The notes beneath the pieces were generated by a model. That model was given only the letters and a program-made list of their open reading frames with translations. It ran no database searches and was not told where the DNA came from. Below, one piece after another: positions 2,872 to 34,263 of a DNA stretch of 45,716 nt (the stretch's first letter is position 1; every line of letters begins with the position of its first letter). A program made the position numbers and the translations under genes. The DNA lies in contig DASSFZ010000153.1 of the NCBI GenBank assembly GCA_035693785.1, positions 1-45,716 on the forward strand. Reading direction: 5' to 3'. The DNA is from Anaerolineae bacterium. Lineage in GTDB: Bacteria; Chloroflexota; Anaerolineae; Fen-1058.

Positions 2872-2904
2872 TCCCAGCTCCGAGCGGGCGTGCCGTGCCC
2901 CACT

Positions 2905-4170: not shown

Positions 4171-4232
4171 ATAAGTCCTTTCTTAGCTGCTCGGCCCGCA
4201 CGCGCCAATTAAGCTGGGATTTCGCACTCCGT

Positions 4233-5429
4233 CTATGGAAGTATCTGTGTCAGATGCGCTACCGCCGCGTCAAGCGCCGGGTCCCGCCCGGCGGCGCGGT
4301 CATCTTCGCTACGCGCCACTGGAATGTCCGGCCGCAAGCCCTGCCCGTTGAAGTCGTCATGGCCGGGTGTATACCACTCGGCTGTGGTGATGTGCAGCGA
4401 AGACCCGTCCGACAATGCGTAGATGCTCTGCACCGAGCCTTTGCCATACGTCGGCTCGCCGATCAGGATGGCGCGTTGACGATCACGCAACGCGCCGGCG
4501 ACGATCTCGCTGGCGCTGGCCGTGCTGTGATTGACCAGCACGACGAGCGGCATATCTCGGGCGGCGCCGTCCGCGGCGGCCGTGAACTGGCGCTCCATCT
4601 CGTCGCGTTTGCGCTCGATCAAGACGACCCCATCGATGAATTGCCCGGTCACGTCGACGGCCGCATCCAGGAGGCCGCCGCCGTTGTCGCGGATGTCCAA
4701 GATGAGCGCGCGCGCTCCTTGGCCGCGCAGGTCTTCGAGGGCCTGCCGCACTTCGTCGGCCGTACGATCGGTGAACAGACGTATAGAAATATATCCAATG
4801 TCGGGCGTTTCTGCGAGAACTCGCCACATCGTCGAGGGCGGCGCGACATTCGCGCGCTCGACTTCCACGTCGAACGCCTGCCCTTCGCGGACGAGCGTCA
4901 GGCGTACCCGGCTTCCGACGTCGCCGCGCAGCAGCGCTTCGATCTCGTCCAGCCGTGGCAGTTCTGCAACCGGCTTGCCGTCGACTGCCGTCAGTTCGTC
5001 GCCTTCGACCACGCCGGCGCGGGCCGCCGGGCCGTCAGGGTAGGGTGAGAGCAACGTGCGGCCCGCCGCGTCCCGACGCACGTCGGCTCCGACGCCGCCG
5101 AACTCCCCGCGCAACTGATCCGATTCAAGACGGGCAGCCGGCGGCTCGATCAGCACGGTGTATTGATCGCCGAGGGCAGCCAGCATCCCGCGAATCGCCG
5201 CGTAGGTACGGGTCTGTGTCGGCGGGAGCGTGCCGAAGAAATGTCGATCGACGAGCTGCCAGGCCTCCTCGTACAGCGCGCCAGACGGCGCGCCCGTGGT
5301 GGCGGCCGGCTCGCCGGCGACGGGGGTCAACAGCCCTGCGACATAACCCAGCCCCATCGCTGCCAAGACAAACAAAACGCCGGACATCCGGCGGAAGGTC
5401 GTCGTTCTCACGCGAACACACTCACGCAC
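4233..5429 (-). CDS. S41 family C-terminal processing peptidase, paralog 2
   Basis: Same architecture as paralog 1 (LDIRDNGGGLLDAAV, VNHSTASASEIVAGALRD, TYGKGSVQ). The start is uncertain: GTG at 5429 or ATG at 5387. Confidence 0.85.
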   Translation of the reverse strand: MRECVRVRTTTFRRMSGVLFVLAAMGLGYVAGLLTPVAGEPAATTGAPSGALYEEAWQLVDRHFFGTLPPTQTRTYAAIRGMLAALGDQYTVLIEPPAARLESDQLRGEFGGVGADVRRDAAGRTLLSPYPDGPAARAGVVEGDELTAVDGKPVAELPRLDEIEALLRGDVGSRVRLTLVREGQAFDVEVERANVAPPSTMWRVLAETPDIGYISIRLFTDRTADEVRQALEDLRGQGARALILDIRDNGGGLLDAAVDVTGQFIDGVVLIERKRDEMERQFTAAADGAARDMPLVVLVNHSTASASEIVAGALRDRQRAILIGEPTYGKGSVQSIYALSDGSSLHITTAEWYTPGHDDFNGQGLRPDIPVARSEDDRAAGRDPALDAAVAHLTQILP

Positions 5430-5530
5430 CCGTGCTAAATGAGCATTCTAGCATGCTTCAAAGTCGCCGACAAGCAGGAGAGGGATGTGCACGCAAATGC
5501 TGACATCTTTTGCGTGCGCACGGAGAGGGT

Positions 5531-6346
5531 TCAGTTCCGGCGCGCCATCTCCGCTCGCGCCGCGCCGATCACTTGCCGGATGGACGCGACGTCGTCGGTG
5601 TCGGGCGCAAGCCCCAGGTACGACTCAAGCAGGTCGATAGCGCGCCGATACGCGCCCTGGCGGAAATGAATCAGCCCCAGATCGCGCACGGGTTCGCCCG
5701 ACGCCGGGTCCAGCTCGATCAGTCGCTCGATCACCGGTTGGGCTTCGCGCAGCATGTCGCGCTGCACATATGTCGCCCTGAGGTTGTGCAGCATGCGCGC
5801 CAGGATCTGGCGCCGTGTGACGGGAAGAAGCAGGCTCCGGCTGAAGGGCAGGTCGCCTGCCGTTCGTCGCATCAGGCGAGCGCAATCCTCTTCGTCGAGC
5901 ACGCCGCCCTGGTGAAACGGATCGATGAACCAGGTGCGTGATCCTGAGTCGCAGCGGATGATGAAGTGGCCCGGCAGCCCGACGCCGCTCAGCGGCAGCC
6001 CGACGCGCCAGCCGATCTCCAGGTAGATGACGGACAGCGCGATGGGCAGTCCTCTGCGCCGGTCGATGACTTGGTTCAAGTACGAATTGCGCGGATCACT
6101 GTAGTCCGGTTCGCTGCCTTGAAAGCCCAGCCTGTCGAACAGGAGATCGGTCACGATTCCGAACGATGGATCCGATCGGCGCGACTCGACTGCGACTCGA
6201 ATAGAGCCGGCCCACGTGTCGAGCTGTCGCACGTACGCATCCGGATCGATCTCGGGATAAGCGTCGCGCGCGAAGAGCAGCGCGGCCCGCGCCAGATCGA
6301 TCTCGTCGTCGGGTACGGATACGGCGGTCGCGAATTCTGTGGTCAT
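5531..6346 (-). CDS. SirB1/YchA-like transglutaminase-like plus TPR protein
   Basis: DLARAALLFARD.YP..D...Y...LD.W...... followed by RRGLPIALSVIYLEIG.R.GLP..GVGLPGHF and a C-terminal TPR-like tail. This matches the UPF0162/SirB1 family pattern. Confidence 0.65.
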   Translation of the reverse strand: MTTEFATAVSVPDDEIDLARAALLFARDAYPEIDPDAYVRQLDTWAGSIRVAVESRRSDPSFGIVTDLLFDRLGFQGSEPDYSDPRNSYLNQVIDRRRGLPIALSVIYLEIGWRVGLPLSGVGLPGHFIIRCDSGSRTWFIDPFHQGGVLDEEDCARLMRRTAGDLPFSRSLLLPVTRRQILARMLHNLRATYVQRDMLREAQPVIERLIELDPASGEPVRDLGLIHFRQGAYRRAIDLLESYLGLAPDTDDVASIRQVIGAARAEMARRN

Positions 6347-6463
6347 GCGCCCTCGGACGGAACCTGTTCGAGAAATAGCGCGAGCGGGGCGAACCCGCTC
6401 GTGCTATACGCGCCAACACCCATTCGCGTGTGCGTTCGAGATAACATGCGTCTGAACGAGGGC

Positions 6464-6805
6464 CTAGTACAGCCCCCATTCCGCAGGAGGGCCGCCCTCC
6501 ATCATCGACGGCTCCCACATCTCCATGCCCAGCGTGATCTTGACCGGACCTTGCAGATGCTTCTCGGCGGTGCGGCGCGTTTGTTCGAGCAGCGCCGGGC
6601 CGTACGGGCAGAACGGGGTGGTCATGATCATCGTGATTTCAGTCAGATCTGGATGAAAGTCGATCTTGCGGATCAATCCCAGCTCGACGATGCTCATACC
6701 CAGCTCGGGGTCGACCACGTCGCGCAGCGCGTCGCGCAGGCCGATTTCCTGTTCGCTGTACTGGATGCCGGCTTCGGCTGTCGTGTTTTCGGCGATGTCG
6801 GACAT
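6464..6805 (-). CDS. DUF59 (SufT/MIP18-like) Fe-S assembly protein
   Basis: LRDVVDPELGMSIVELGLIRKI......ITMIMTTPFCPYGP is the typical DUF59 (PF01883) motif with its conserved Cys. The gene is adjacent to sufR and the suf operon. Confidence 0.8.
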   Translation of the reverse strand: MSDIAENTTAEAGIQYSEQEIGLRDALRDVVDPELGMSIVELGLIRKIDFHPDLTEITMIMTTPFCPYGPALLEQTRRTAEKHLQGPVKITLGMEMWEPSMMEGGPPAEWGLY

Positions 6806-6814
6806 GTCGTCTCC

Positions 6815-7444
6815 CTACGGATTCCCATCGAGCGCGGGGGCTTTGACGTGGAAGGTGCACACGTTGTCGCCATTCAGAATCCAGGATTGGCGCTCGACCT
6901 CGGCGCCGAGCGCGGTGTTGATCAGTTGCAAGTCGATCGCGCAGATGCTGGGATGCCGGGCGGCGACGTACCGGTACGGGCAGCCGCACTGCGTCAATTG
7001 AAAATCCTGGTCGATCTTCTCAACCCGAGCGAAGAAACCTTCTTCGCCGAGAACCTCGACGAGCGTCTCGATCTTCTCCTCGAGCGATCTGTCTCCAAGC
7101 TCGGCGCCGTGCTCCGCAGTGATGTCCTCGACCATGTGGTTGAATATGGCCTCGATCTGCTGCGCCGTCAGTTGAGACTGCAGCGCGTCGAGCAAGCGGT
7201 CGGCGAGCCGATGCGTCGATTGCGGGAAAAGCTGAAGGGCCGCGCCGGCCAGGGAGTATACGTACTTCGGGCGGCCTACTCCCTGCCGGAGTGGCTCCGA
7301 GACAATCAGGCCCTCGCGCTCGAGCCTGCTCAGGTGATAGTGTGCGTTGACGGGCGTCGTGTCCAGGGCTACCGCAATATCGGCAGCGGTCGCTTCGCCG
7401 CGCTCCCGCAGCAGATTGAGAACAGCGCTTCGATTATCTTGCAT
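6815..7444 (-). CDS. sufR: SufR-like ArsR-family HTH regulator with a C-terminal Cys cluster
   Basis: Winged-helix region VLNLLRERGEATAADIAVALDTTPVNAHYHLSRLEREGLI. The C-terminal Cys cluster reads QCGCPYRYVAARHPSICAIDL...CTFHV. It is divergent from sufC. The ATG at 7444 was chosen because the predicted promoter (-10 at 7484..7489) lies downstream of the longer ORF start at 7504. Confidence 0.65.
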   Translation of the reverse strand: MQDNRSAVLNLLRERGEATAADIAVALDTTPVNAHYHLSRLEREGLIVSEPLRQGVGRPKYVYSLAGAALQLFPQSTHRLADRLLDALQSQLTAQQIEAIFNHMVEDITAEHGAELGDRSLEEKIETLVEVLGEEGFFARVEKIDQDFQLTQCGCPYRYVAARHPSICAIDLQLINTALGAEVERQSWILNGDNVCTFHVKAPALDGNP

Positions 7445-7483
7445 GCGTCGTGAATCCGACTCCCAACTCCCGCATTCGAGTAG

Positions 7484-17318: not shown

Positions 17319-17933
17319 TCAAACTTCAAAATCCGTGTCCCAGCATGAGGGACAGCAGCCCACCTCTGTCGTGCGTGCCAGGACTGAGGTCGTCAGCGCA
17401 TCGGGCGGGCACGGCTTGAACCCGACCGCGCCGCACTGGCAGGCGTACCAGCCGGGCGCGGCGGCGGCGTAGCAGGGATGCGGCCCAAGCGTCACTTGCT
17501 CCACACCGGAGCCCCAGCGTGCGTTGGTGATCAGTCGCCGGCAGCCTGCGGCCCGCAGCTTCCTGACATAGTCGCCGAAGTGCCGGCAGTGGCGCATGAG
17601 CAGCACGCCGACGGTTATGCCGCTCGGAAATGGTATCGAGAGGGCGTCACCGCGGATCACGGTGAGGTTGTGAGGGTAGGGGCGGGCCTTGCGCCCGCCC
17701 GTCTCGCGTTCGCCTGTGAGCAATTCGCCGTGCTGCTCGATCGCGATCACGGCGCGTGTCTGTTCCGCAGCCCGGCGCGCAAAGCGCAAATCGCCTGCGC
17801 CGATGTCGAGGACGACATCACGCGCCCGGAGGAGCGCGAGCGCCGCGCGGTAGGTGGGTTCGTCGTACGGCGCCCAGGCGGATTCCCAATCCGCGTCGCT
17901 CAGATCTGCTGGGTGATAGTCCAGGTCAGCCAC
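17319..17933 (-). CDS. Class I SAM-dependent methyltransferase-like protein with a Cys-rich C-terminal tail
   Basis: Motif I-like VVLDIGAGDLRFARRAA..AIE. The tail reads CYAAAAPGWYACQCGAVGFKPCPP....GCCPSCW. The start is uncertain: the GTG at 17933 was chosen because the upstream part of ORF 17319..18218 overlaps the sdhD-like gene in another frame. Confidence 0.5.
   Translation of the reverse strand: MADLDYHPADLSDADWESAWAPYDEPTYRAALALLRARDVVLDIGAGDLRFARRAAEQTRAVIAIEQHGELLTGERETGGRKARPYPHNLTVIRGDALSIPFPSGITVGVLLMRHCRHFGDYVRKLRAAGCRRLITNARWGSGVEQVTLGPHPCYAAAAPGWYACQCGAVGFKPCPPDALTTSVLARTTEVGCCPSCWDTDFEV
17676..17700. repeat. GTAGGG-headed GC stem-loop repeat (copy 2), inside the methyltransferase CDS
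   Basis: gtagg gggcgggc cttgc gcccgccc gives an 8-bp perfect GC stem. On the coding (minus) strand it is read in frame as part of ..GGRKARPYP.. Confidence 0.5.
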
Positions 17934-18265
17934 ATCCCGTATGCGACAGTGAATACGCCGACGACGAACAGCACGCGCGACACGGTCGTTTCGGCGCGCG
18001 CGCTCAGGCCCAGGTCGAACAGGATCGAGCGCACGCCGAGCAGCGCGTGCGCCGTCACCGTCACCAGGAACAGGAGCTCCAGCACGACGACGATCGGGTT
18101 GCGCAGAAAGTCTGCCACGCCGGCAAAGTCGCGGATGCCCCCTTCCGCGATGAAGTGTTGTGTAATCATGTGCAGCGCCAGCAGCACGATCAGTCCCACG
18201 CCGGTGAGCGCCTGCCACAGCCAGGCGGTGGTCGGGGCCGGTTTCTGTTCGGATAAATCTTCCAT
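17900..18265 (-). CDS. SdhD-like small membrane anchor subunit (3 TM)
   Basis: 121 aa with three hydrophobic helices and a His in helix 1-2 (LLALHMITQHF). It starts 5 nt after the sdhC-like stop. Confidence 0.6.
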   Translation of the reverse strand: MEDLSEQKPAPTTAWLWQALTGVGLIVLLALHMITQHFIAEGGIRDFAGVADFLRNPIVVVLELLFLVTVTAHALLGVRSILFDLGLSARAETTVSRVLFVVGVFTVAYGMWLTWTITQQI

Positions 18266-18270
18266 CGCCG

Positions 18271-18663
18271 TCAGCTCCCGAAAACCATGATACCCATCAC
18301 GACGGTACCGATCCCCGCGATCAGCATCAACCCGACGAACAGGCTCTTCTGGCTGCGCGTGCCGAAGCCCAGCCCGGTAAGCGTCACGCGAATGCCGTTC
18401 AACCCGTGAATCAGCCACCCGGCGATGAGAATGACGTCGAGCGCCAGGAACAGCGGCGACCGCGCCAGGTTGACGAAGGGATCCCACATATCTGGTCCGC
18501 CTGCCAGCATGCTTAGGACGATTAAGTGCAGGTAGAGATAGACCACCAGCCCGATGCCGGTCACGCGATTGAGTGTGTAAGCCCACATTCCCATCCCGCG
18601 CCGGCGCACGTCGGCCCATTGCGCGGTGCGGCGCAGCCTGGAGCTTTGAAGTCGTGTCGCCAT
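18271..18663 (-). CDS. SdhC-like cytochrome b membrane anchor subunit (3 TM)
   Basis: 130 aa. NRVTGIGLVVYLYLHLIV and WLIHGLNGIRV are typical of SdhC/FrdC-type anchors with His ligands. Its ATG lies 1 nt from the sdhB-like stop. Confidence 0.6.
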   Translation of the reverse strand: MATRLQSSRLRRTAQWADVRRRGMGMWAYTLNRVTGIGLVVYLYLHLIVLSMLAGGPDMWDPFVNLARSPLFLALDVILIAGWLIHGLNGIRVTLTGLGFGTRSQKSLFVGLMLIAGIGTVVMGIMVFGS

Positions 18664-18664
18664 A

Positions 18665-19432
18665 TCACCGTCCGAATAGTTTCCTGATTCGATGCTTGAC
18701 CAGGTCGCGGCGCAGCAACATGATGGCCCCGGCCGGGTCGACCCCTTGCGGGCAGGCTTCGGTGCACTCCCAGCCGCTGTGGCAGCGCCACACTCCGTGC
18801 TCACCATCGGACAGCTCGAGCAGCCGCGCCGATTCCGCTTTGTTCGACGCTTCGAGGCGGGCGCGGTAAATCCCGGCCAGCGCCGCCGGCCCCATAAACT
18901 TATCGCTCGTCGCCGTCGTCGGGCAGGCGCTGATACATATTCCACATTCGATGCAATTCTCGAAGCGGTTCGCGCGCGCCACGCCCTCGGGCAGCGTAAC
19001 GGATCGCGCGTCTTGCGGCCGGCCGTCTGCGGCGCCGGCCGGCACAGGCAGATACGCTTCCGCCGCGCGCGTGATGACCATGCCCGACGTCGACATTCGC
19101 TGAAAGAAGCCGCTTACGTCGACGACGAGGTCGCTGACGATGGGAAAGTTGCGCAGCGGCTCGATGCGCAAGTCGCCGCGGCCGCGCCACACGTCGCGAA
19201 CCGGCGTGATGCACGGCAACTTCTCGCAGCCGTCGATGCGCACGGCGCACGATCCGCACGAGGCGTGGTGGCAGGCATGCCGAAAGGTAAGGCTGCGGTC
19301 GTGCTGCGCCCATGCCGCTTCGATGGCGTCGAGCACGTTGGCCGTATCTGCAACCTGGACGCGGAACGTGTCGTATCGCGGTGGCTGGCCGGCCTTATAC
19401 CGGAAGACCTTGAGCGCGACTTCGAGTATCAC
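18665..19432 (-). CDS. Succinate dehydrogenase/fumarate reductase-type iron-sulfur subunit (SdhB/FrdB-like)
   Basis: [2Fe-2S] motif CHHASCGSCAVRIDGCEKLPC, [4Fe-4S] motif CIECGICISACP and [3Fe-4S] motif CHSGWECTEACP. The start is uncertain: GTG at 19432 fits the family N-terminus (..LKVFRY..), with a TTG at 19525 as the alternative. Confidence 0.8.
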   Translation of the reverse strand: MILEVALKVFRYKAGQPPRYDTFRVQVADTANVLDAIEAAWAQHDRSLTFRHACHHASCGSCAVRIDGCEKLPCITPVRDVWRGRGDLRIEPLRNFPIVSDLVVDVSGFFQRMSTSGMVITRAAEAYLPVPAGAADGRPQDARSVTLPEGVARANRFENCIECGICISACPTTATSDKFMGPAALAGIYRARLEASNKAESARLLELSDGEHGVWRCHSGWECTEACPQGVDPAGAIMLLRRDLVKHRIRKLFGR

Positions 19433-19552
19433 ATCGATCTCACTGACTGGACTCCGGCAATTTGCCGGAGTGCGGCCATCAGGCCGCCATATCTTCGGCC
19501 TCCGCAGGCTGTTGAATGTTAACAATTTAATCCGACACTAAACGCAGGCGAC

Positions 19553-19603
19553 GTAGGGCGGCTTTCGATAGCCGCCTTCAAGGCAGGCATAGAAGACCCT
19601 GCC
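19553..19603. repeat. GTAGGG-headed stem-loop repeat (copy 3) plus a second hairpin
   Basis: First hairpin: gtagg ggcggct-ttcgat-agccgcc. Second hairpin: ggcagg-catagaagac-cctgcc. Both lie in the gap between the glpA-like and sdhB-like genes. Confidence 0.45.
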
Positions 19604-19681
19604 CCCGGATTGTCGGATCTATTTGTTAAGCTGCAAAAGCCTGCACTCCAGACACCAGAGATAGCCGTTGCCAAACTCCAA

Positions 19682-20839
19682 TCACTGATAGAAAAGCCGA
19701 TAGGACGCCAGCGGCGTATCGCGCGTGCGGCACTCGGCTCCGATCCCTAGCTTGTTGCATACAATATCGGAGACCTTCTCGGCCATGGCGCGGGCCGTCG
19801 TCGTCTTGCCGCCGGAAATCGTGACGAAGCCATCTATGCCGTCGCGCTTGTGGTCGAAACATTCGAACGTCCGGCTGACTTCGCGCTCGTCGACGCCGCC
19901 TTTGCTGATGAGGGGACGCGCCGCGGCCATCACGCCGCGCAGCGGCACCTGCCGGATGCCGGGCAGCAGCATCTCGCCCTGCTGGAACATCTTGTCGACG
20001 TGCTCCTGCGGAATCGGAATCAGATCGGGGTCGTCGACGGCCCACGAAGTCGTGCCGATGATCGACGTCGTCCGCTGGGGGACGACGATGTCGCCGTCCG
20101 AAGGCTTGTTCAGGCGGTTGACGACCATGTTGTTCAGCCGCTTGCCGACGGTGACCATCACACCGGCGGTGGGCGATACCGGCACGTCGACACCGGCCAT
20201 CTCCGCGATTTCGCCGGCCCACGGTCCGGTCGCGTTGACGACGATGTCGGCCCCGATGCTTTCCGTCTTGCCTGTGCGGTGATCCACGACGGTCACACCG
20301 GTCACGCTCTGGCCGGAGCGCGTGACTTCCTTGACTTCACAGTACGTGCGCACGATGGCCCCGTTTCGGTGCGCGGTGGCGAGAAACGCCAGGCAGAAGC
20401 GAAACGGCTCGAACACGCCGTCGGGCACCTGCACGGCGGCGAGCGTCTTCGGATTGAGGAGCGGCTCGACCTCGAACGCGCGCTTGAGCGGCAGGTCGCG
20501 CGCCGGGATGTGGCACGCTTCGCAGCCCGCCAGGAACTTCTCCTTGAAGGCCAGATCGTCTTCCGTGATGGCCACGAACAGGCCGTCGTTCAGCTCCAAT
20601 ACATCCGGCATGATCCTGCGCAGAATCATATTTTCGTCGATGCACTCGATCGCCGATTCCTGATCCTTGACACAGTAACGCCCACCGGAGTGCAGCAGGC
20701 AGTGATTCCGGCCGGTCGTGCCGGACGCGACTTCGCCGCGCTCGATCACGGTGACGCGCAAGCCGCGCAGCGCCAGGTCGTGCGCGGTCGCTGCTCCGGT
20801 CGAACCGGCGCCGATGACAATCACGTGAGGGGCAGACAT
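19682..20839 (-). CDS. GlpA-type FAD-dependent glycerol-3-phosphate dehydrogenase, short form without the C-terminal Fe-S domain
   Basis: Colinear with my recollection of E. coli GlpA residues 1 to about 420: VIVIGAGSTGAATAHDLALRGLRV, SGTTGRNHCLLHSGGRY, VPDGVFEPFRF, VVNATGPWAGEIA, KPSDGDIVVP, FVTISGGKTTTARAMAE, CNKLG. The protein ends there at 385 aa. The ATG at 20839 was chosen. Confidence 0.8.
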   Translation of the reverse strand: MSAPHVIVIGAGSTGAATAHDLALRGLRVTVIERGEVASGTTGRNHCLLHSGGRYCVKDQESAIECIDENMILRRIMPDVLELNDGLFVAITEDDLAFKEKFLAGCEACHIPARDLPLKRAFEVEPLLNPKTLAAVQVPDGVFEPFRFCLAFLATAHRNGAIVRTYCEVKEVTRSGQSVTGVTVVDHRTGKTESIGADIVVNATGPWAGEIAEMAGVDVPVSPTAGVMVTVGKRLNNMVVNRLNKPSDGDIVVPQRTTSIIGTTSWAVDDPDLIPIPQEHVDKMFQQGEMLLPGIRQVPLRGVMAAARPLISKGGVDEREVSRTFECFDHKRDGIDGFVTISGGKTTTARAMAEKVSDIVCNKLGIGAECRTRDTPLASYRLFYQ

Positions 20840-20972: not shown

Positions 20973-22472
<1,500 letters not shown>

Positions 22473-22553
22473 CTTATGCCTCCATCTGATAGAGCGTTGT
22501 GCCTGTTCGGTAGGCCGCCATGCGTCGTACCAACAGGGCATATTCCGCCGACG

Positions 22554-23210
22554 CTAGCCGCCGTTAGTCCAGGTATCGGCAGCGGCCTTGAGGAGCAAGT
22601 GCGACGAGGTCGCGCCCGGGTCTTGATGCCCGGCGCTGCGCTCGCCCAGGTAGCTGGCGCGGCCCTTCTTGGCGACCAAGGGAATGGTGGCGATCATGCC
22701 CTGCTCGGCAGCTTGGGCCGACTTCACGAGCGCCTCACGCATAGGCGTGCCATTAGCCGCCGCCTCTTTCAGCGTCACCAGCGCGGGCGAGAGCGCGTCG
22801 ACCATCGTCTTGTCCCCGAGGTTGGCCTTGCCGCGCATGACCACACCGTTCACGCCGGCTTCTAACGCGTCGACCCAGTCGGCCAGAGTGAGCTCCAGTT
22901 TGCCCGCGGACGAAGTTCCCATCTGCATGAAGAGCGTGCCGTAGAGCGGGCCACCGGCCCCCCCGACGGTAGAGACCAGCGTCATGCCGACTGTCTTCAG
23001 GATCGCGCCGATATCCTTGTCGGAGACGCCGGGCAGCTTGGTGAGTGCAGCCTGAAAACCGCGATCCATGTTCGCGCCGTGATCGGCGTCTCCGATGGCC
23101 GCATCCAACTGAGTCAGATACTCTTTGTTGTCGGCGATGACGGCCGCGTAGGCCCTGATCCATGCGAGAACGGCGTCCCGCGATACACTGTTGGTCACTC
23201 TGGCCCCCAT
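22554..23210 (-). CDS. dhaL: Dihydroxyacetone kinase ADP-binding subunit DhaL
   Basis: [22 protein letters not shown] and [13 protein letters not shown]. The ATG at 23210 was chosen; the TTG at 23249 would lie inside a 16-bp hairpin. Confidence 0.85.
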
Positions 23211-23217
23211 GAATTGC

Positions 23218-23272
23218 GACGAAGGACGAAAGACGGATGGCGCAAACAACGACCAATCTTTCGTCCTTCGTC
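23218..23272 (-). other. Perfect 16-bp stem-loop between dhaK and dhaL
   Basis: gacgaaggacgaaaga (23218..23233) pairs with tctttcgtccttcgtc (23257..23272) across a 23-nt loop. The 3' arm on the mRNA ends 7 nt before the dhaL ATG. Confidence 0.7.
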
Positions 23273-23290: not shown

Positions 23291-24292
23291 TTACATCCCC
23301 CAGCGCATGCCGGCCGTCTTGACCGGCGCGTCCCACAGCTTGGTCAGGTTGTCGTCCAGCTTGAGCAGGGTGATGGAGCATCCGGCCATTTCGAGCGAGG
23401 TGATGTACGAGCCGATGAGGTTGCGCACAATCTTCACCCTACGACCGGCGCAGATCTTCGCCAGCTCATTATACACCACGTACAGCTCGATGACGGGCGT
23501 GCCCCCCATGCCGTTGACGAAGGCCAGCACCTCGTCGCCGGACTTGAAGGGCAGATCGTCGAGCACGGGTATGGCGAGCATCTCGGTGATCTCGGCCGCC
23601 GTCTTGAGCTTCATGCGCGTGCGGCCTGGCTCGCCGTGGATGCCAATGCCGATCTCCATCTCGTCCTCCGGCAGATCGAACGTCGGCTTGCCGACATGCG
23701 GCACGGTGCATGAAGTCAGCGCCATGCCCATGCTGCGGCCGTTCGCGTTGACCTTGCGGCAGATGTCGGCCACTTCTTTGAGCGAGCGCTTCTGCTCGGC
23801 GGCCGCGCCGGAGATCTTCTCCGACAGCACGGTGACGCCGACGCCGCGCCGTCCAGCGGTGTACAGGCTGTCCTGCACCGCCACGTCGTCGTTGGTGACG
23901 ACGCTCTCCACCTCGATACCCTCGCCCCGCGCCAGGTCGGCGGCCATCTCGAAGTTCATGATGTCGCCGGTGTAGTTCTTGACGACGTGAAGCACGCCGG
24001 CTCCCCCGTTCACGGCCTTCGTGGCTTCCAGCATCTGGTCGGGTGTGGGCGAGGTGAACACGGCACCTGGGCAGGCCGCGTCGAGCATGCCGGGGCCGAC
24101 GAAGCCGCCGTGCATCGGCTCGTGGCCGGAGCCACCGCCGGAGATGACGCCCACTTTGCCCTTCACCGGCGCGTCGGCGCGCACGATGTAGTTCGGCTCG
24201 AAGAACACCTTGACCAGGTCAGGGTGGGCCGCGGCGATGCCCTGAAGCTCTTCCTTGACGACGTCTTCGGGCTTGTTGATCAGTTTCTTCAT
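23291..24292 (-). CDS. dhaK: Dihydroxyacetone kinase substrate-binding subunit DhaK
   Basis: [43 protein letters not shown] and NYTGD..NF. Confidence 0.92.
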
Positions 24293-24327: not shown

Positions 24328-25074
24328 CTACATGCCCAGCGCCTGCGCCAGGAACGCGGCCAGCGCACCACCTATGACCGGACCGACTACCGGGATCCAC
24401 GAGTAGCCCCAGTCGCTGCCGCCCTTGCCGGGGATCGGCAGGAGGAAGTGTGCAATACGCGGGCCAAGGTCGCGCGCGGGGTTAATCGCGTATCCTGTCG
24501 GGCCGCCCAGGCTCAAGCCAATGCCCCACACCAGTGCCGCGACTAGGAACGGACCGACACCAGTGGAAGGAGCGCCCTGAGCAGTGGCGGACGCGCTGAA
24601 GATCGCGTAGATCACGAACATCAGCACGAAGGTGCCAATGATCTCGGTGATCAGGTTCCACAGAGGGCTGCGGATGGCCGGGATGGTACTATGGCACGCC
24701 AGCTTCAAGTTGGCATCTGCAGTCTCGCCCCAGTGCTTGTAGTAGGCCAGGAAGACCAGCACCGAGCCGAGGAACGCGCCGACGAACTCGCCCGCGATGC
24801 GGGCCAGCCCCTCGCTGAGTGTCGTCGCTGCACCCCCTCCGGCGCCGCGGATGATCTTGCCGATCGTGACTGCCGGATTGAGATCGGCTTGGCCACTTCC
24901 CGCTGCCTGTGCCGTGAACACGCCCACCATGACTGCAAAGCACCAGCCAGCGGTGATGACGATCCAGCCACTGCCTTGTGCCTTGGACTTGCCGAGCAGG
25001 ACGGCTGCGACCACGCCGTTGCCCAAGAGGATAAGCATCATCGTGCCGAGAAGTTCGCCTACGAACGGGCTCAT
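24328..25074 (-). CDS. glpF: Aquaglyceroporin / glycerol uptake facilitator (MIP family)
   Basis: Two NPA boxes (DLNPAVTIG and AINPARDLGPR). The ATG at 25074 follows AAGGGGGA. The upstream part of ORF 24328..25212 is not MIP-like. Confidence 0.88.
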   Translation of the reverse strand: MSPFVGELLGTMMLILLGNGVVAAVLLGKSKAQGSGWIVITAGWCFAVMVGVFTAQAAGSGQADLNPAVTIGKIIRGAGGGAATTLSEGLARIAGEFVGAFLGSVLVFLAYYKHWGETADANLKLACHSTIPAIRSPLWNLITEIIGTFVLMFVIYAIFSASATAQGAPSTGVGPFLVAALVWGIGLSLGGPTGYAINPARDLGPRIAHFLLPIPGKGGSDWGYSWIPVVGPVIGGALAAFLAQALGM

Positions 25075-25375
25075 GGCATTTCCCCCTTTGATTGGAAAGT
25101 TCGAGCGGATAGACGATGGTGGTCTGATTGGGTTCTGCGAGTTGTTTTGTGGCGACGACCTCCTTTCTACGCTGCATGCAGCATATGCGGTGATGAGCAA
25201 GAAAAACACCATCCGGAGCGATTACTCACAGAACGGTGTTCATCAAGTCACCCCCATAACTCGTCCCTGCAGAGCCACATCCCCGCGATATGGCATAAAC
25301 CGTCGGAGTTGTGTGAATGGGGCATATAATGTTTATATTTCAGGTACCGTTTCTCTGGCTATTTGCAAACTCCGA

Positions 25376-25440: not shown

Positions 25441-27435
25441 CTAGTTCGAAGAGCTCGATCGCAAATCATCGACTGACAGACCAAGCTCTTTCATCTTGCG
25501 CCACAGCGTTGTCCGCCCTATGCCCAAGATCTGCGCTGCCTGGCTCAAGTTGCCATTCGTGGCGCGTCCGGCGCAGACGATGGCATCCTTCTCGGCTTCG
25601 ACGAGGCTACGGACAGGCTCGGCAAGCGGTTTGCCTGGAATCACGGCCTGGCGCTGCCGGACGGCGCCAGGCAGGTGCTCTACCCCGATGGGCCTGCCAT
25701 CGGCCAGCAGGGCGGCGCGCTCCAGGACGGATTCCAATTCACGACCGTTGCCCGGCCAGGGATAGGCGGCCAAGATGTCGCGTGCGCTCTGCATCAGCAT
25801 CAAGGGGTGCCCAATCTGAGTACTCAGTCGCTCCAGAATCCGATCAATCGCAACCGGGATGTCGCCGGGTCGCTCTCGCAGGGGCGGAATGTGGATCACG
25901 AACGAGCGCAGCCGGAATAGGAGGTCGGCGCGGAATGTTTCCTCGGCCACGCGCGCCTCGAGGTCGACGGTCGAGGCCGCGATGATTCGCACGTCGACCG
26001 GGATCACGCGCGTGCCGCCCAGGCGGATGACGTCGCCCGCCTCGATGACGCGCAGCAGTGCAGCCTGCATGTCCAGCGGCAGCGATTCGATCTCCTCGAG
26101 CAGCAGCGTGCCGTTGTCTGCCAGCTCGAACTTGCTCGGCCGCCCGCCCGAGGCCGTGCCGTAGGCGCCGGCTTCGTAACCCAGGAACTCGCCCAGCGCC
26201 AGTGGGCGGGGAATCGCGCGGCAGTTCATCGCCAGGAACGGGCCATCGGCGCGGCGGCTGCAGTTGTGAATGGCGCGCGCGAGAACGTTCTTGCCGGTCC
26301 CGCTTTCGCCCAGCACCAGGACACACGCTTTCGCGGCAGCGGCTGCCTGCGCCTGGCGCCGGATGCGCTGCATCGCAGTGCTGGCGCCAGGAATGTCGTC
26401 GAGCGTGAGTCGCGCTTGCGCTCCAACCTGCCGGGTGACGAGCTGACGCACCTGGTCCAGCCGGCGCAGCGTCGCGATATATGCCGTCGGCTCTCCTTCC
26501 AGGTCCCGCACCGGGCGCAGGCTGACCAGGCAGTCGCGCTGGGTTCCGCCGACGCTGAAATGGGTCTCGACGTCGCTCAGCTCCTCGCCGCGCGCGACGG
26601 CTTTGGCCAATCCTTCGGGCAGCGTCACATACTCCGCCAGTGGGCGGCCGACGGCTTCGGTCTGTGACAGGCCGAGCATTTGTGTGGCCCGTTGGTTCAT
26701 GTGCATGATCCTGCCGTCCGCGCTCCAGGCGAGCACGCCGTCGGAAATGGCTTCCACCGTGGCGTTCAGCTCGCTGGCGTGCGCGTTGGCCTCGTGAACG
26801 AACATGTCCGCTTGCAACTGGTTCTCGATCGCGCGGGATGCGGCCACGGCGATCCCGAGCAAATGGTAGCTGTATTGCTCGACCTGCGCCATCAGCCCGA
26901 TCGACCCGACCAACCGGCCGTCGACGGCGTAAATGGGCGCTGCGGCGCTGCCGATCTCGTGCAGAGTCCTGAGATAGTGCTCCGGGCCGACCGTTTGCGC
27001 AGGACACCCTTCGATCAGGGCGGAGGCGAATGCATTCGTGCCGATCCGGCTTTCGTCCAGGAAGGCAGCTCGCCGCAGTCCCAGCGCTGCGGCAATCTGC
27101 AGCATGCTCTTGTCCCCCACCATTTCCAGCACGCACGCCGTGCTGTCGACGAGCACCAAGATCACCCCCGTTCCTTCGACGAACTGGTGAACGTCCTCCA
27201 TGATCGGCCGCGCCATGGCCGTGAGCGAGGCATGCTGGCTCAGCGTGAGGCGGAGCACGTCGCTGCTAAGATAGGCCCACTGCGGAAAGGTAGTCGGATT
27301 CAGGCGCGGCGCGCAGCGCTGCCAGGAGGAGCGTACAAGCGGATCGACATCGGGTCCCAGGCGGCCATCCACTGTAAAGCCAATCCACACCCCCTTCAGT
27401 CGAGCCAAATCGATGTGAGCGTTCGACGATTGCAT
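25441..27435 (-). CDS. dhaR: DhaR-like AAA+ enhancer-binding-type regulator (GAF/PAS sensor, AAA+, Fis-type HTH)
   Basis: Walker A GESGTGKN. Central-domain motifs RVIEAGDV.RLGG, R.DL.FRL and PPLRER. C-terminal HTH NLSQAAQILGIGRTTLWRKMKELG. The GAFTGA position reads GAYGTA (26152..26169). The gene is adjacent to the dha genes. Confidence 0.75.
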   Translation of the reverse strand: MQSSNAHIDLARLKGVWIGFTVDGRLGPDVDPLVRSSWQRCAPRLNPTTFPQWAYLSSDVLRLTLSQHASLTAMARPIMEDVHQFVEGTGVILVLVDSTACVLEMVGDKSMLQIAAALGLRRAAFLDESRIGTNAFASALIEGCPAQTVGPEHYLRTLHEIGSAAAPIYAVDGRLVGSIGLMAQVEQYSYHLLGIAVAASRAIENQLQADMFVHEANAHASELNATVEAISDGVLAWSADGRIMHMNQRATQMLGLSQTEAVGRPLAEYVTLPEGLAKAVARGEELSDVETHFSVGGTQRDCLVSLRPVRDLEGEPTAYIATLRRLDQVRQLVTRQVGAQARLTLDDIPGASTAMQRIRRQAQAAAAAKACVLVLGESGTGKNVLARAIHNCSRRADGPFLAMNCRAIPRPLALGEFLGYEAGAYGTASGGRPSKFELADNGTLLLEEIESLPLDMQAALLRVIEAGDVIRLGGTRVIPVDVRIIAASTVDLEARVAEETFRADLLFRLRSFVIHIPPLRERPGDIPVAIDRILERLSTQIGHPLMLMQSARDILAAYPWPGNGRELESVLERAALLADGRPIGVEHLPGAVRQRQAVIPGKPLAEPVRSLVEAEKDAIVCAGRATNGNLSQAAQILGIGRTTLWRKMKELGLSVDDLRSSSSN

Positions 27436-31085: not shown

Positions 31086-32297
31086 TCACATTTTGGAGTT
31101 TGAAGTCTTGCGTTTCCCTTTGCTCGTCTTTACGAGAGACGCCCGCTTGAGCGCATCGTCGCCGTGCCTGGCCCTGATGGCATCCATGGCTTGGGTCAGC
31201 CGCTCGCGCCGATCTTCGGCCGGCTCGAACAGGCTCAACTGGCGCGCCGATGTTCCCAGGTTCCGCGCGGCGACGCCCAGCAGTCGCACCGGCCGGCGCG
31301 TCCACGTCTTCGTAAAGAGCGACCACGCCGTTGCGTAGATCGTCTCGTTGAGATGCGTCGGGGCGGGCAGGGTCGTCTGCCGGGTCAGCGTCGTGAAATC
31401 GGCATAGCGCAGCTTGATTGCGACGGTTCGCGCGTCCACAGCCTCTGCACGCAGGCGCGCGCCCACGCCCTCGCTCAGCTCGAGCAGGACCCGGCGCAGC
31501 CGCTCCTTATCCGACACGTCTCGGGTGAAGGTGATTTCCTGGCTGATCTGCTTGCTCTCGCGCTCGACGGCGACCGGGGAATCGCTAATACCCTGCGCGC
31601 GGCGACTCATGTCGTCCGCGTGGTTCGCGCCGAATCGGCGCGCGAGCCTCTCGCGCGGTGCACCGGCGAGCTGGCCGATCGTCTCGATGCCCATCGCGCG
31701 GAGCGCGGCAGCGCTTTTGGGACCGACTCCGATCAATCGCTCGACGGGCATGGGCGCGAGAAAGGCCGCTTCTTCGCCCGGAGGCACGACGCACAGGCCA
31801 TCCGGTTTGGCGCGCTCGGTCGCCGTCTTGGCGACGAGCTTGTTCGCCGCCACGCCGATCGAGCAAGGGAGATTGAACTGCTCGCGTATGCGCGCTCTCA
31901 GCGTTTGCGCGATCTGTTCCGGCGACCCCCACAGCAGTTCGGCGCCGGTCACGTCGAGGTACGCTTCGTCGATCGACACCGGCTCGACCTGAGGCGTGAC
32001 TTCGTAGAACAGCGCCATGACCTTGCGCGACCACTCGTCATACACGCGATGGCGCGCGGGCAGGATGATCAGGTCGGGACACTTCTGCAGCGCAGTCCGC
32101 ATCGGCATGGCGGAGCGCACGCCGAACGCGCGGGCTTCGTACGAAGCGCTCGACACGACGCCGCGCTCTTCAGGGCGCCCACCGACCGCCACCGGCTTGC
32201 CGCGAAGATCGGGCCGATCCAGCAGCTCGACGGAAACGAAAAAGGCGTCCAGGTCGATGTGGAGGATCGAGCGCTGGGGTAGGGGGGACTGTTCCAC
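31086..32297 (-). CDS. dinB: DNA polymerase IV (Y-family)
   Basis: ILHIDLDAFFVSVE....P.LRGKPV.VGG, SIDEAYLDVT and VA.NKL.AK.A. Confidence 0.92.
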   Translation of the reverse strand: MEQSPLPQRSILHIDLDAFFVSVELLDRPDLRGKPVAVGGRPEERGVVSSASYEARAFGVRSAMPMRTALQKCPDLIILPARHRVYDEWSRKVMALFYEVTPQVEPVSIDEAYLDVTGAELLWGSPEQIAQTLRARIREQFNLPCSIGVAANKLVAKTATERAKPDGLCVVPPGEEAAFLAPMPVERLIGVGPKSAAALRAMGIETIGQLAGAPRERLARRFGANHADDMSRRAQGISDSPVAVERESKQISQEITFTRDVSDKERLRRVLLELSEGVGARLRAEAVDARTVAIKLRYADFTTLTRQTTLPAPTHLNETIYATAWSLFTKTWTRRPVRLLGVAARNLGTSARQLSLFEPAEDRRERLTQAMDAIRARHGDDALKRASLVKTSKGKRKTSNSKM

Positions 32298-32314
32298 TTG
32301 TGACGCCGTGGATC

Positions 32315-32348
32315 AGACCCGTGAGGTCTCCCAAGACCTCACGGGTCT
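32315..32348. repeat. AGAC...GTCT hairpin, variant AGACCCGTGAGGTCT / AGACCTCACGGGTCT
   Basis: agacccgtgaggtct-ccca-agacctcacgggtct gives a 15-bp perfect stem between the start of dinB (32297) and the stop of the hypothetical gene at 32354. Confidence 0.7.
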
Positions 32349-32353
32349 CGTGA

Positions 32354-32785
32354 TCAGCGCCGGCCGTTCTTGCCGGAGATGAGCTTCTGGTGAGCGCCTT
32401 GCCAGAGCGAGGCGGGCTTCGTCATCTGGTTCACCTTAACGTCCGAGAAGCGCACCGATAAGCCGGCCAGCTCGGTCGGGAGCAGTGACCACTCCTCGCT
32501 CAAAACCAGGTCTTCGATGCGATCTGCCGTGGGGGCCAGCCACGCCCACTCGCGGCGAAACTGATCGGCCTTCAGGAAATAGTCTCGCTTCTCCCACGCT
32601 GCGCACGACTTCTCGTTCAGGTCGTCGATCAGCCGCAGCGCGATGGCGATGAACGCGACCATGTCTTTCGTCTCCGCGTCGATCGTCTTCTTCGCGCTCA
32701 GGCGGCGCAGAATCTCGGCGATGATGCGCCGCAGGCGGTTGCGCTGCGATGCAGGCGTTCCGTCGACGTGAGTGATTCGGCTCAT
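32354..32785 (-). CDS. Hypothetical protein, predicted mostly helical, no family recognised
   Basis: ORF 32354..32830. Its composition differs from the R/A/G-rich shadow ORFs (K/E/D/W-containing: AAWEKRDYFLKADQFRREWAWL). The start is uncertain (ATG 32785 or 32830). Confidence 0.5.
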   Translation of the reverse strand: MSRITHVDGTPASQRNRLRRIIAEILRRLSAKKTIDAETKDMVAFIAIALRLIDDLNEKSCAAWEKRDYFLKADQFRREWAWLAPTADRIEDLVLSEEWSLLPTELAGLSVRFSDVKVNQMTKPASLWQGAHQKLISGKNGRR

Positions 32786-32893
32786 ATGAAATCCTGTATC
32801 CTTAATGAGGTGCTCGTGAAACATAACCATGATAGCACGGAAGTTCTAACCAGACAAATTCGTTGAGGCGATCGGGCACAAGGCGCGCTCTCT

Positions 32894-32922
32894 TTGACAT
32901 TATAGCCCATTTGTTCTATAAT
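32894..32922 (+). promoter_or_regulatory. Consensus sigma70 promoter
   Basis: TTGACA (32894..32899), 17 nt, TATAAT (32917..32922), about 34 nt upstream of the small ORF at 32956. Confidence 0.65.
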
Positions 32923-32955
32923 GTTTCCATCTGTAATGTCCTTTTGAGGTGATAC

Positions 32956-33135
32956 ATGGCAAAGCGCATACCATTGTCCCAAGGATATCGTAGGAAGAAA
33001 CGGAATGAGGGACTCTTCGCCATTGTCGATGATGAGGACTATGATTGGCTTAACCAGTGGCGCTGGTGTGCGATTCATACGGGGCGCAGAAGCGGCGGGT
33101 ATGCGATGAGGATGGCGCGAAACGTCGAGCCGTGA
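32956..33135 (+). CDS. 59-aa ORF resembling the N-terminus of phage HNH/AP2-type endonucleases (not in the ORF track)
   Basis: ATG preceded by GAGGTGA. Translation: MAKRIPLSQGYRRKKRNEGLFAIVDDEDYDWLNQWRWCAIHTGRRSGGYAMRMARNVEP. The IPL(S/T)QG...A(I/L)VDDEDY.WL.Q.(K/R)W.A.....YA.R pattern is typical of that family. The HNH part is absent. Confidence 0.55.
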   Translation: MAKRIPLSQGYRRKKRNEGLFAIVDDEDYDWLNQWRWCAIHTGRRSGGYAMRMARNVEP

Positions 33136-33168
33136 ATATGTTTTTCTGGCGCAATACTTTTGAACAGG

Positions 33169-33197
33169 TTGCACGTTACGTTAGATACTGATATAAT
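33169..33197 (+). promoter_or_regulatory. Candidate promoter for the recombinase gene
   Basis: TTGCAC (33169..33174), 17 nt, TATAAT (33192..33197). The ATG at 33208 would lie about 4 nt from the predicted transcription start, so the mRNA would be leaderless or nearly so. Confidence 0.5.
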
Positions 33198-33207
33198 TGC
33201 TGTAGAC

Positions 33208-34263
33208 ATGATCCATGCAGCACAGAGCGATTCCAGAACTCCCTCTGCCCCACCGGGGCAGCCACCGAGACATTCGGCCTCAGAAATCGCGTTCGCCGAT
33301 GCGTTCATCGCCACACTGGCATCCAGCCCAAATACGGTAACATCCTATCGCTATGGACTGGGACGGTTGGCTGAGTTCATTTCACATACGAAGTACATTG
33401 ACCCTCCTTCACCGTATCAGGTCAGACACTTCAAGGACGACCTGTTACTCAAGTTTCACGAATGGATGGCGCGTCGCGGCTACTCAGCGCAGACACGCAC
33501 TAACTATCTGGCTGTGACCAAGCGCTTCCTCATCTGGCTCGACGCGAACGATCGCCTGCCCGCCGGCTTCCAGGTCGGAAAAGCCGTCAACCGGTTGAAA
33601 GCCGCACGCGGCGCGCGCCGCTCGGCGAAGGCCGGGCGCGAGCCTGACCCAGGCATCCCACGCATTGTCACGTTCTACGACTCGATCCCCCTACCCTTTT
33701 CGGATTCGCCGCGCGATCGGCTCGAACGCCTGAAGCTTCTCCGCGCGCGGGCGATCGTCCATACGCTGTACGCGTCGGCGGGGCGTGTGAGCGAGGTCGC
33801 GTCGCTGACGCGCGAGGCGGTGCTTGACGGTCGTCTGAGCGAAGTGCGTATCACGGGCAAAGGCGGCAAGGATCGCGTGCTGCTGTTGACGAAAGACGCG
33901 CAGCAGGCGATTGCGGCATACTGCCGCGAGCGCCACGACGATTTCCCCGGCCTGTTCATCTCACACGGGCGCGGCGCGGGAAGGCCGCTGGGACGCGGAA
34001 CGTTGTGGTCGGTCGTCAAGCATGCGGCGAAGGCGCTGGGACTGTACAAAGGCACGTCGCCGCACGCGTTCCGCCATTACCGCGCGCAGCAGTTGCTGCA
34101 CGAGGGCATGGACCTCGACGTGCTGCAAGCCTACCTCGGCCACGCCGACATCAGCACGACGCGGCGCATCTACGCGCCGTACACCGCGTTGGAGAAAGTG
34201 CGCGACCAACTGGAGACGTTCGGCCGCAGCGCGAAGGAGGCGGCAGACGAGGAGACCGCGTAA
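33208..34263 (+). CDS. Tyrosine recombinase / phage integrase family (XerC/D-like)
   Basis: N-terminal SAM-like core-binding domain (SPNTVTSYRYGLGRLAEFI). Catalytic residues are present: AGRVSEV (Arg), GKGGKDR (Lys), HAFRHY (His-x-x-Arg) and LGHADISTTRRIY (His, Tyr). The alternative start is 33160. Confidence 0.85.
   Translation: MIHAAQSDSRTPSAPPGQPPRHSASEIAFADAFIATLASSPNTVTSYRYGLGRLAEFISHTKYIDPPSPYQVRHFKDDLLLKFHEWMARRGYSAQTRTNYLAVTKRFLIWLDANDRLPAGFQVGKAVNRLKAARGARRSAKAGREPDPGIPRIVTFYDSIPLPFSDSPRDRLERLKLLRARAIVHTLYASAGRVSEVASLTREAVLDGRLSEVRITGKGGKDRVLLLTKDAQQAIAAYCRERHDDFPGLFISHGRGAGRPLGRGTLWSVVKHAAKALGLYKGTSPHAFRHYRAQQLLHEGMDLDVLQAYLGHADISTTRRIYAPYTALEKVRDQLETFGRSAKEAADEETA

Follow-up and report, generated by a model that had tools for sequence, protein, structure and literature searches.

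A short GlpA-type flavoprotein encoded with SdhB-, SdhC- and SdhD-like subunits in an Anaerolineae glycerol cluster: a candidate glycerol 3-phosphate:quinone oxidoreductase

The four-gene module and its predicted cofactors

The DNA analysed here (the window) comprises positions 1-45,716 of contig DASSFZ010000153.1 of an Anaerolineae bacterium (GCA_035693785.1), whose minus strand carries, at positions 17900-20839, four consecutive genes for a short GlpA-type flavoprotein, an SdhB-like iron-sulfur (Fe-S) subunit and two small membrane anchors. A preliminary description of the locus had proposed that the four products form a hybrid glycerol 3-phosphate (G3P):quinone oxidoreductase. The module lies in a minus-strand glycerol cluster with the order sigma-54 activator, glpF, dhaK, dhaL, glpK, the four module genes, a methyltransferase-like gene and dhaM (Table 1). 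As first described, glpK is the immediate upstream neighbor, ending 133 nt from the short glpA, and the last three genes are nearly contiguous, with 1 nt between the Fe-S stop codon and the anchor 1 start and 5 nt between the anchor 1 stop and the anchor 2 start. Neither glpB nor glpC follows the short glpA, the next genes being those of the Fe-S subunit and the anchors, and no GlpB, GlpC, FAD_binding_2-type or CCG-domain protein was found among the Pfam-scanned open reading frames (ORFs) of the window, several shorter ORFs being unscanned. The window likewise encodes no recognizable SdhA/FrdA, in agreement with the initial reading: the best tblastn match to an E. coli SdhA probe had an E value of 1.8. 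This probe was confirmed as 1nek_A (1362 bits) and also picks up Wolinella FrdA at 1e-106.

The flavoprotein is the catalytic domain of a GlpA-clade G3P dehydrogenase without the BFD-like [2Fe-2S] domain. It matched PF01266 (DAO) with 172 bits and TIGR03377 with 461.9 bits over profile positions 1-377 of 530, and NF008313 aligned over positions 10-387 of 548. GlpA models score 392-462 bits on the catalytic domain, as compared to 97 bits for the next-best family, GlpD. The TIGR03377 cut-off of 552.8 was missed because the C-terminal third is absent: profile positions 378-530 were unmatched, Fer2_BFD had no match in the protein, and the polypeptide ends at residue 385. Of the features that define a TIGR03377 GlpA, the DAO N-terminal domain is thus present, whereas the BFD domain, the full score and the company of glpB and glpC are lacking. 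The preliminary description had correctly recognized a 385-residue GlpA-type protein ending before the BFD domain, but had extended its colinearity with E. coli GlpA to about residue 420, whereas the TIGR03377 and NF008313 alignments place the end at about 385-390. The nearest solved structures are G3P dehydrogenases/oxidases (3da1, 2rgh and 2qcu), and three motifs common to solved G3P dehydrogenases (GRN..HSGGRY, ARPL and SGGKTTT) are conserved in the short GlpA orthologues. A PDB sequence search with the short GlpA returned no GlpABC or GlpA-SdhB structure. An AlphaFold2 monomer model, built on an alignment of close homologues only (at least 76% identity) and used for fold-level matching only, was of low confidence (pLDDT 59.8), its best fold matches being GlpD, GlpO and G3PDH. 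No hydrophobic segment was detected in the protein, and the C-terminal dimerization/membrane regions of GlpD are also missing. Orthologous short GlpA proteins measure 385-418 aa in 78/78 loci, and homologues of 385-389 aa number in the thousands.

The Fe-S subunit matched TIGR00384 with 176.9 bits (cut-off 88) and contains Fer2_3 and Fer4_8 domains. Its 11 cluster cysteines (C54/C59/C62/C74, C160/C163/C166/C170 and C217/C223/C227) provide the ligand sets for [2Fe-2S], [4Fe-4S] and [3Fe-4S] clusters that characterize the SdhB-type subunit of complex II, bearing out the three cluster motifs reported at the outset, and are conserved in 75-77 of 77 orthologues. The best PDB match was E. coli FrdB (1kf6_B), a subunit of a menaquinol enzyme, with Mycobacterium smegmatis 6lum_B also among the best, and the Trp-rich stretch following the 4Fe-4S motif in ubiquinone-type SdhB is missing. 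At the first 2Fe-2S cysteine lies a clade-specific motif, C-H-H-x-x-C-G-x-C, in which His55 is conserved in 75/77 and His56 in 77/77 of the glpA-linked Fe-S orthologues. When the Fe-S protein was used as query against 1.84 billion cluster representatives, 104 clusters were recovered at E<=1e-30; C-H-H was present in 51 of the best 150 representatives, and most of the others carry C-R-x-x-x-C-G, as does canonical SdhB/FrdB. By this comparison C-H-H is a marker of the Fe-S clade found here. At least 4500 database proteins match the subunit at E<=1e-10, and the close relatives listed for it carry the label [quoted passage not shown]

Both anchors passed PF01127 (44.7 bits for anchor 1 and 50.7 bits for anchor 2; cut-off 25.8), and each has three hydrophobic segments. 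In profile searches the closest solved relatives were 6lum_C for anchor 1 (1.5e-21) and 6lum_D for anchor 2, ahead of E. coli FrdC and SdhD. The 6LUM structure is the diheme succinate:menaquinone oxidoreductase Sdh2 of M. smegmatis, where the axial ligands are His D107 and His C87 for heme bP, and His D65 and His C47 for heme bD (PMC7447783). Counting along the HMMER alignments pairs His C47 and His C87 with His46 and His86 of anchor 1 (invariant in 75/75 orthologues), and His D65 and His D107 with His32 and His73 of anchor 2 (invariant in 74/74). The two histidine-containing stretches quoted in the preliminary description hold the distal-heme ligands in the first transmembrane segment (TM1), the proximal-heme ligands being in TM2; its heme-binding anchor therefore stands as to the conserved histidines, but a single “heme b” was too narrow, as two hemes are predicted. 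The pair resembles the Sdh_cyt anchors of complex II in its bis-His heme ligands, with heme binding being predicted only, and is predicted to form a type-A-like diheme anchor, as would suit Chloroflexota, which use menaquinone. A further invariant residue of anchor 2, Asp84, follows His73 by 11 residues, the spacing between His71 and the quinone-site Asp82 of E. coli SdhD; the alignment of HAWIGMWQVLTDY with HALLGVRAILLDL agrees with this spacing. An extra histidine in TM1 of anchor 2, His37 (H-x4-H), is invariant in 74/74 orthologues, occurs also in an archaeal locus (L082, below), and has no counterpart among the four 6LUM heme ligands. Profile assignment of all four proteins (DAO/GlpA, SdhB-type and two Sdh_cyt anchors) accordingly matched what had first been proposed from the sequence.

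Conservation, variants and the intergenic spacer

A GlpA scan with one genome per species yielded 80 loci, down to 52% identity. Most belong to Anaerolineae and other Chloroflexota (Ktedonobacteria, Thermoflexales and Ardenticatenaceae), and others to Verrucomicrobiae, Chthoniobacterales, Nitriliruptorales and Solirubrobacteraceae; two bins labeled Flavobacteriaceae and Syntrophothermus may be mis-binned. An SdhB-like gene directly follows the short glpA on the same strand in all 79 loci with downstream DNA. Both anchors are present in the same order in 73 loci; six are cut by contig ends and one (L076) carries a CCG fusion. Median gaps along the module are 11, 13.5 and 11 nt; in nine cases glpA overlaps the Fe-S gene. 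The conservation in relatives on which the original proposal had been staked is thus observed, and the adjacency spans five phyla, including archaea, when two further finds (L082 and L084) are counted. The E. coli SdhA probe gave no tblastn match at E<=1e-3 in the 80 loci, and wherever the flanks are long enough, about 6 kb around the module (4-5 kb for archaeal and spirochaete loci) is free of sdhA; the SdhA/FrdA flavoprotein that a complex II would possess is thus missing from the window and from these loci.

The upstream neighbor is glpK in most, but not all, related loci. Seven loci (L015, L016, L020, L022, L023, L033 and L034) contain the four genes without glpK or dha genes, and in the three of these stand-alone loci scanned with Pfam the neighbors are unrelated (V-type ATPase, P-type ATPase and cyclase). 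Stand-alone modules among unrelated neighbors occur in Verrucomicrobiae, Nitriliruptorales and other genomes. What stays constant is thus the set of four genes, not the surrounding glycerol cluster.

More distant loci vary in what follows the Fe-S domains. Thermofilaceae archaea were reached via the C-H-H representative P0258; the Infirmifilum locus L082 encodes glpK, a 389-aa short GlpA, a C-H-H Fe-S protein and a pair of Sdh_cyt anchors whose starts overlap. Identity to the window proteins is 48.6% for GlpA, 35% for the Fe-S subunit and 29-32% for the anchors, and gene order, C-H-H motif and histidine pattern are alike. In a Spirochaetes metagenome-assembled genome (MAG) reached via P0288 (L084, 2018-4681), a 388-aa short GlpA is followed after 3 nt by a C-H-H Fe-S protein, and no anchors are present at the locus; a fermenter may here use a soluble form of the system. 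Immediately upstream lies a gene for a flavodoxin-like protein containing 4Fe-4S motifs. In a Solirubrobacteraceae MAG (L076, 5977-8775), the gene after the short glpA encodes a 532-aa protein combining Fer2_3, an Fer4 dicluster domain and a GlpC-like CCG region, with no transmembrane anchors; pyruvate formate-lyase and its activase are encoded nearby. Natural fusions join the C-H-H Fe-S protein to one Sdh_cyt anchor (P0257, 373 aa) or to two (P0252, 571 aa). By these comparisons, the constant core is the short GlpA plus an SdhB-type protein with an N-terminal [2Fe-2S] domain. As this core pair is constant while its output varies, the SdhB-type protein plausibly replaces GlpB/GlpC and, through its [2Fe-2S] domain, the lost BFD cluster.

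In the window, a 249-nt spacer with a fold z of −4.1 and GC hairpins without U-tracts lies between the short glpA and its Fe-S partner gene. No terminator or sigma-70 promoter, which together had been flagged in the preliminary description as able to uncouple the genes, was detected above chance in the spacer or across the cluster; a scan for the sigma-54 consensus was uninformative (18 matches versus 19 expected by chance), and Rfam gave no credible match for the spacer. In L001, whose GlpA is 96% identical, only about 45 nt lie between the tblastn matches, as compared to the family median of 11 nt. A related insertion is shared only by L002 (7159-7442) among the loci, and the 3′ part of the spacer (CAGCCTGCGGAGGCCGAAGAYATGGCGGCCTGA...GGCCGCACTCCGGCA) recurs near-exactly on another contig of the L001 MAG (L150, about 1700-1850). 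A genome-wide scan with spacer motifs gave about 109 matches, nearly all of them chance matches in unrelated taxa; the real matches outside the window were L113, which is the L002 locus, and L150 from the sister MAG. Because the insertion is missing from L001 yet part of its sequence recurs at L150, the spacer looks like a lineage-specific dispersed hairpin repeat (REP/MITE-like) inserted between glpA and the Fe-S gene, and on this evidence it is not a conserved part of the module.

Other genes of the window

Table 1. Features of the glycerol cluster in the window, in order of transcription
Feature	Position	Strand	Basis or remark
Sigma-54 activator with PAS domain	25441-27435	-	first gene of the glycerol cluster
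glpF	about 24328-25077	-	
dhaK	23291-24292	-	
dhaL	22554-23249	-	
GlpK, glycerol kinase, G3P supplier	20973-22541	-	FGGY_N 283 bits, FGGY_C 180 bits
Short GlpA-type FAD flavoprotein, 385 aa	19682-20839	-	PF01266, TIGR03377
Intergenic spacer, 249 nt, GC-hairpin-rich	19433-19681	-	fold z, comparison with relatives
SdhB/FrdB-type Fe-S subunit, 255 aa	18665-19432	-	TIGR00384, Fer2_3 and Fer4_8
Anchor 1, SdhC-like, 130 aa, 3 TM	18271-18663	-	PF01127, hydropathy
Anchor 2, SdhD-like, 121 aa, 3 TM	17900-18265	-	PF01127, hydropathy
Methyltransferase-like protein, 204 aa	17319-17933	-	weak Methyltransf_25/11 matches
dhaM, EIIA-HPr-EI fusion, 840 aa	14781-17303	-	

The methyltransferase-like gene (class-I type), the first 34 nt of which overlap the end of anchor 2, encodes a protein with a Cys-rich C terminus (CQCG...CCPSC). 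By tblastn, homologues occur in the glycerol cluster of more than half of the 80 loci, with full-length ORFs recovered in 42; their position is downstream of anchor 2 in some loci and between glpK and glpA in others. No PDB relative was found, and Pfam/NCBIfam matches were weak only. The gene is a conserved neighbor in the cluster. DhaM combines EIIA-Man, HPr and a complete Enzyme I including its PEP-binding domain, so that a PEP-dependent phosphoryl relay comes with the DhaKLM dihydroxyacetone kinase itself; the window showed no gene for a glycerol dehydrogenase. Among related loci, L007, L008 and L014 (about 2600-5800) have two glpK copies in tandem ahead of glpA (79-84% identity to GlpK of the window), and a second, divergent FGGY kinase (43-46% identity) is encoded upstream of glpF in L009, L010, L057 and L069.

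Elsewhere in the window, a full-length tmRNA gene lies at 990-1378 on the minus strand (Rfam RF00023, 179.6 bits). A few kilobases from the glycerol cluster, a Y-family DNA polymerase (IMS/DinB-like; 31089-32312, minus strand) and a tyrosine recombinase/phage integrase (33136-34260, plus strand) delimit a region, 31089-34260, that may be the edge of a mobile element. A 501-codon ORF on the plus strand (5948-7450) has no Pfam match and an atypical codon-position GC content (GC1 0.77, GC3 0.67), and may not be a real gene.

A putative G3P:quinone oxidoreductase and its alternatives

The explanation we favor, with a probability of roughly 0.78, is that the four genes encode a single membrane-bound G3P:(mena)quinone oxidoreductase, with the SdhB-like subunit taking over from GlpB, GlpC and the cluster that GlpA has lost. 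In such an enzyme, G3P made by GlpK would be oxidized to dihydroxyacetone phosphate by the FAD of the short GlpA, presumably docked on the Fe-S subunit, and from FAD the electrons would reach the SdhB-like subunit, the stand-in for the BFD cluster, GlpB and GlpC, at its [2Fe-2S] cluster and continue through [4Fe-4S] to [3Fe-4S]. They would then enter the anchor formed by two three-TM subunits with two b hemes (type-A-like, compare M. smegmatis Sdh2), where menaquinone would be reduced. Menaquinone is the presumed acceptor, two hemes are the predicted content of the anchor, and reduction may take place at a proximal or a distal quinone site. Several points weigh against this explanation. No direct evidence of a GlpA/Fe-S interface was obtained, and the low-confidence monomer model (pLDDT 59.8) carries no interface argument. 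Fusions among the 120 + 150 top homologues join the Fe-S protein to an anchor or to CCG only, and none joins GlpA to SdhB. Pairwise identities of GlpA and its three partners are correlated (r = 0.85-0.90 across 71 loci), which favors a partnership, but such a mirror-tree correlation is also expected from shared ancestry alone. The absence of SdhA holds for the window and the locus flanks, and these genomes could encode one elsewhere; the structured 249-nt spacer could affect co-expression of glpA and the Fe-S gene in this genome. Lastly, electron transfer from G3P to menaquinone is exergonic, and a diheme anchor is not thermodynamically required for it.

Among known systems, E. coli GlpABC shares the catalytic domain, homologous over GlpA residues about 1-385, and the proposed role, oxidizing G3P into the quinone pool downstream of GlpK. 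In contrast to the window, it has a BFD [2Fe-2S] domain, GlpB and GlpC, the last being a CCG protein where the window encodes an SdhB-type three-cluster subunit and integral, predicted-diheme anchors. M. smegmatis Sdh2 is the nearest solved relative of both anchors and among the nearest of the Fe-S subunit, and its four heme histidines align with invariant residues of the window proteins. It differs in its SdhA, where the window instead encodes a DAO-fold flavoprotein as donor, in the canonical C-R following the first 2Fe-2S cysteine, where the window has C-H-H, and in SdhF, for which no counterpart was identified in the window. TfrB/GlpC-type proteins carry CCG domains, whereas the Fe-S subunit of the window has none and is accompanied by separate transmembrane anchors; the 532-aa partner in L076 bridges the SdhB and GlpC architectures.

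The closest precedent is archaeal. Schmerling et al. (2025, Commun Biol), whose studied enzyme was Sulfolobus acidocaldarius GlpA-CoxG, noted that glpA of Thermofilum pendens and relatives is followed by counterparts of sdhB, sdhC and sdhD, and from this synteny predicted a “GlpA-SdhBCD” type of G3P dehydrogenase (PMC11962113, Fig. 9b). The literature search returned this paper as the single relevant source, and no member, archaeal or bacterial, has been biochemically characterized. The earlier remark that no complex of this composition had been characterized is therefore accurate, although the architecture itself had already been predicted in Thermofilum (PMC11962113). Gene order and architecture are those of the window, with sdhB-, sdhC- and sdhD-like genes following glpA, and the Thermofilaceae loci L081-L083, on which (rather than on T. 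pendens itself) the orthology rests, share with it glpK, the 389-aa short GlpA (48.6%), the C-H-H Fe-S protein, two anchors and the histidine pattern. “GlpA-SdhBCD” was described for archaea only, while the window is bacterial (Anaerolineae-like); judged by these sequence comparisons, the module is the bacterial orthologue of the architecture predicted for archaea, with a predicted G3P:quinone activity. What goes beyond that work (PMC11962113) is the distribution in bacteria, the C-H-H signature, the prediction of two hemes, and the variants without anchors or with a CCG fusion.

The best-surviving alternative, though improbable, is that the short GlpA acts alone as a peripheral, GlpD- or GlpO-like dehydrogenase or oxidase, and that the Fe-S subunit and anchors form a separate module with another donor. 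DAO-fold G3P dehydrogenases without Fe-S partners do exist (GlpD and GlpO), the 249-nt spacer separates the Fe-S gene from glpA in the window, and a truncated GlpA works with a CoxG anchor only in S. acidocaldarius (PMC11962113). The latter system (Saci_2032/2031) resembles the window in pairing a GlpA-clade flavoprotein lacking the Fe-S C terminus with a non-GlpBC partner encoded downstream, but that partner is a small CoxG-like membrane-association protein without redox cofactors, as compared to an Fe-S wire and heme anchor here. An SdhB-type subunit lacks a substrate site and needs a flavoprotein donor, and its sole conserved neighbor is the short GlpA; the pair is kept even without anchors (L084), gene overlaps imply co-translation, and the short GlpA has no hydrophobic segment and lacks the C-terminal regions with which GlpD dimerizes and meets the membrane.

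Still harder to sustain, and very unlikely in our estimate, is that the SdhB-, SdhC- and SdhD-like genes are part of a genuine succinate:quinone or quinol:fumarate oxidoreductase with its SdhA/FrdA encoded elsewhere, adjacency to glpA being mere genome organization. The proteins do pass generic SdhB and Sdh_cyt models and are annotated as succinate dehydrogenase/fumarate reductase Fe-S subunits, and the SdhA searches reach the window and the locus flanks only. Coincidental organization is at odds with an adjacency kept in 79/79 loci and five phyla with frequent stop/start overlaps, with the lack of a flanking sdhA, with a C-H-H signature in place of the canonical C-R, and with anchorless and CCG-fused variants that still adjoin a short glpA. 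Moreover, the only solved canonical succinate:quinone oxidoreductase of Chloroflexota (Chloroflexus, 9lay) differs in having just one anchor, of b558 type, and a distant SdhB (2.3e-13 to the window Fe-S subunit, versus about 1e-32 for FrdB or 6lum_B). Equally remote is a different DAO-family:quinone oxidoreductase acting on another 2-hydroxy acid or an amine, which the sub-cut-off TIGR03377 score and the several stand-alone modules whose 6-kb surroundings lack glpK and any other glycerol gene might suggest, since the low score is due to the missing C-terminal third (392-462 bits for GlpA models versus at most 97), most loci lie in a glpF-dhaKL-glpK cluster, the motifs common to solved G3P dehydrogenases are invariant, and the top structural matches of the low-confidence model are GlpD, GlpO and G3PDH.

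The interpretation of four products acting as one G3P:quinone oxidoreductase is thus supported, and all of the tests run against it failed to refute it. A broader reading, toward which the evidence leans with less assurance, is that SdhB-type Fe-S subunits may serve partners other than SdhA/FrdA, and that the C-H-H clade may have become a dedicated adaptor for a DAO-fold G3P dehydrogenase, which would constitute a widespread respiratory class. Its outputs may be interchangeable, namely a two-subunit anchor with two hemes, a GlpC-like CCG domain fused to the Fe-S protein, or no anchor, and transfer may have carried the class among Chloroflexota, Verrucomicrobiota, Actinomycetota, Spirochaetota and Thermofilaceae archaea. 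If so, its bacterial members are now mis-annotated as succinate dehydrogenase subunits.

The architecture is common in bacteria (Chloroflexota, Verrucomicrobiota and Actinomycetota), and occurs also in Thermofilaceae archaea and, as a variant, in Spirochaetes. The bacterial loci contradict the statement of Schmerling et al. (2025) that in Bacteria glpA is consistently accompanied by glpB and glpC (PMC11962113). The module is present on OY969772.1, OY969938.1 and contig CAVSXS010000001.1, the first two being complete genomes. A MAG assigned to Ktedonobacter racemifer (L024) carries the module; the cultured K. racemifer type strain, if the module is present there too, would be a bacterial test system, and Thermofilum species would be an archaeal one (PMC11962113). 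Should the complex assemble as proposed, the Fe-S and anchor chassis of complex II would accept electrons from a differently folded flavoprotein, a clear example of how respiratory enzymes evolve by modules. When the metabolism of Anaerolineae and other uncultured lineages is reconstructed, glpA-linked Fe-S members would read as capacity for the TCA cycle or fumarate respiration, whereas they more likely report glycerol respiration.

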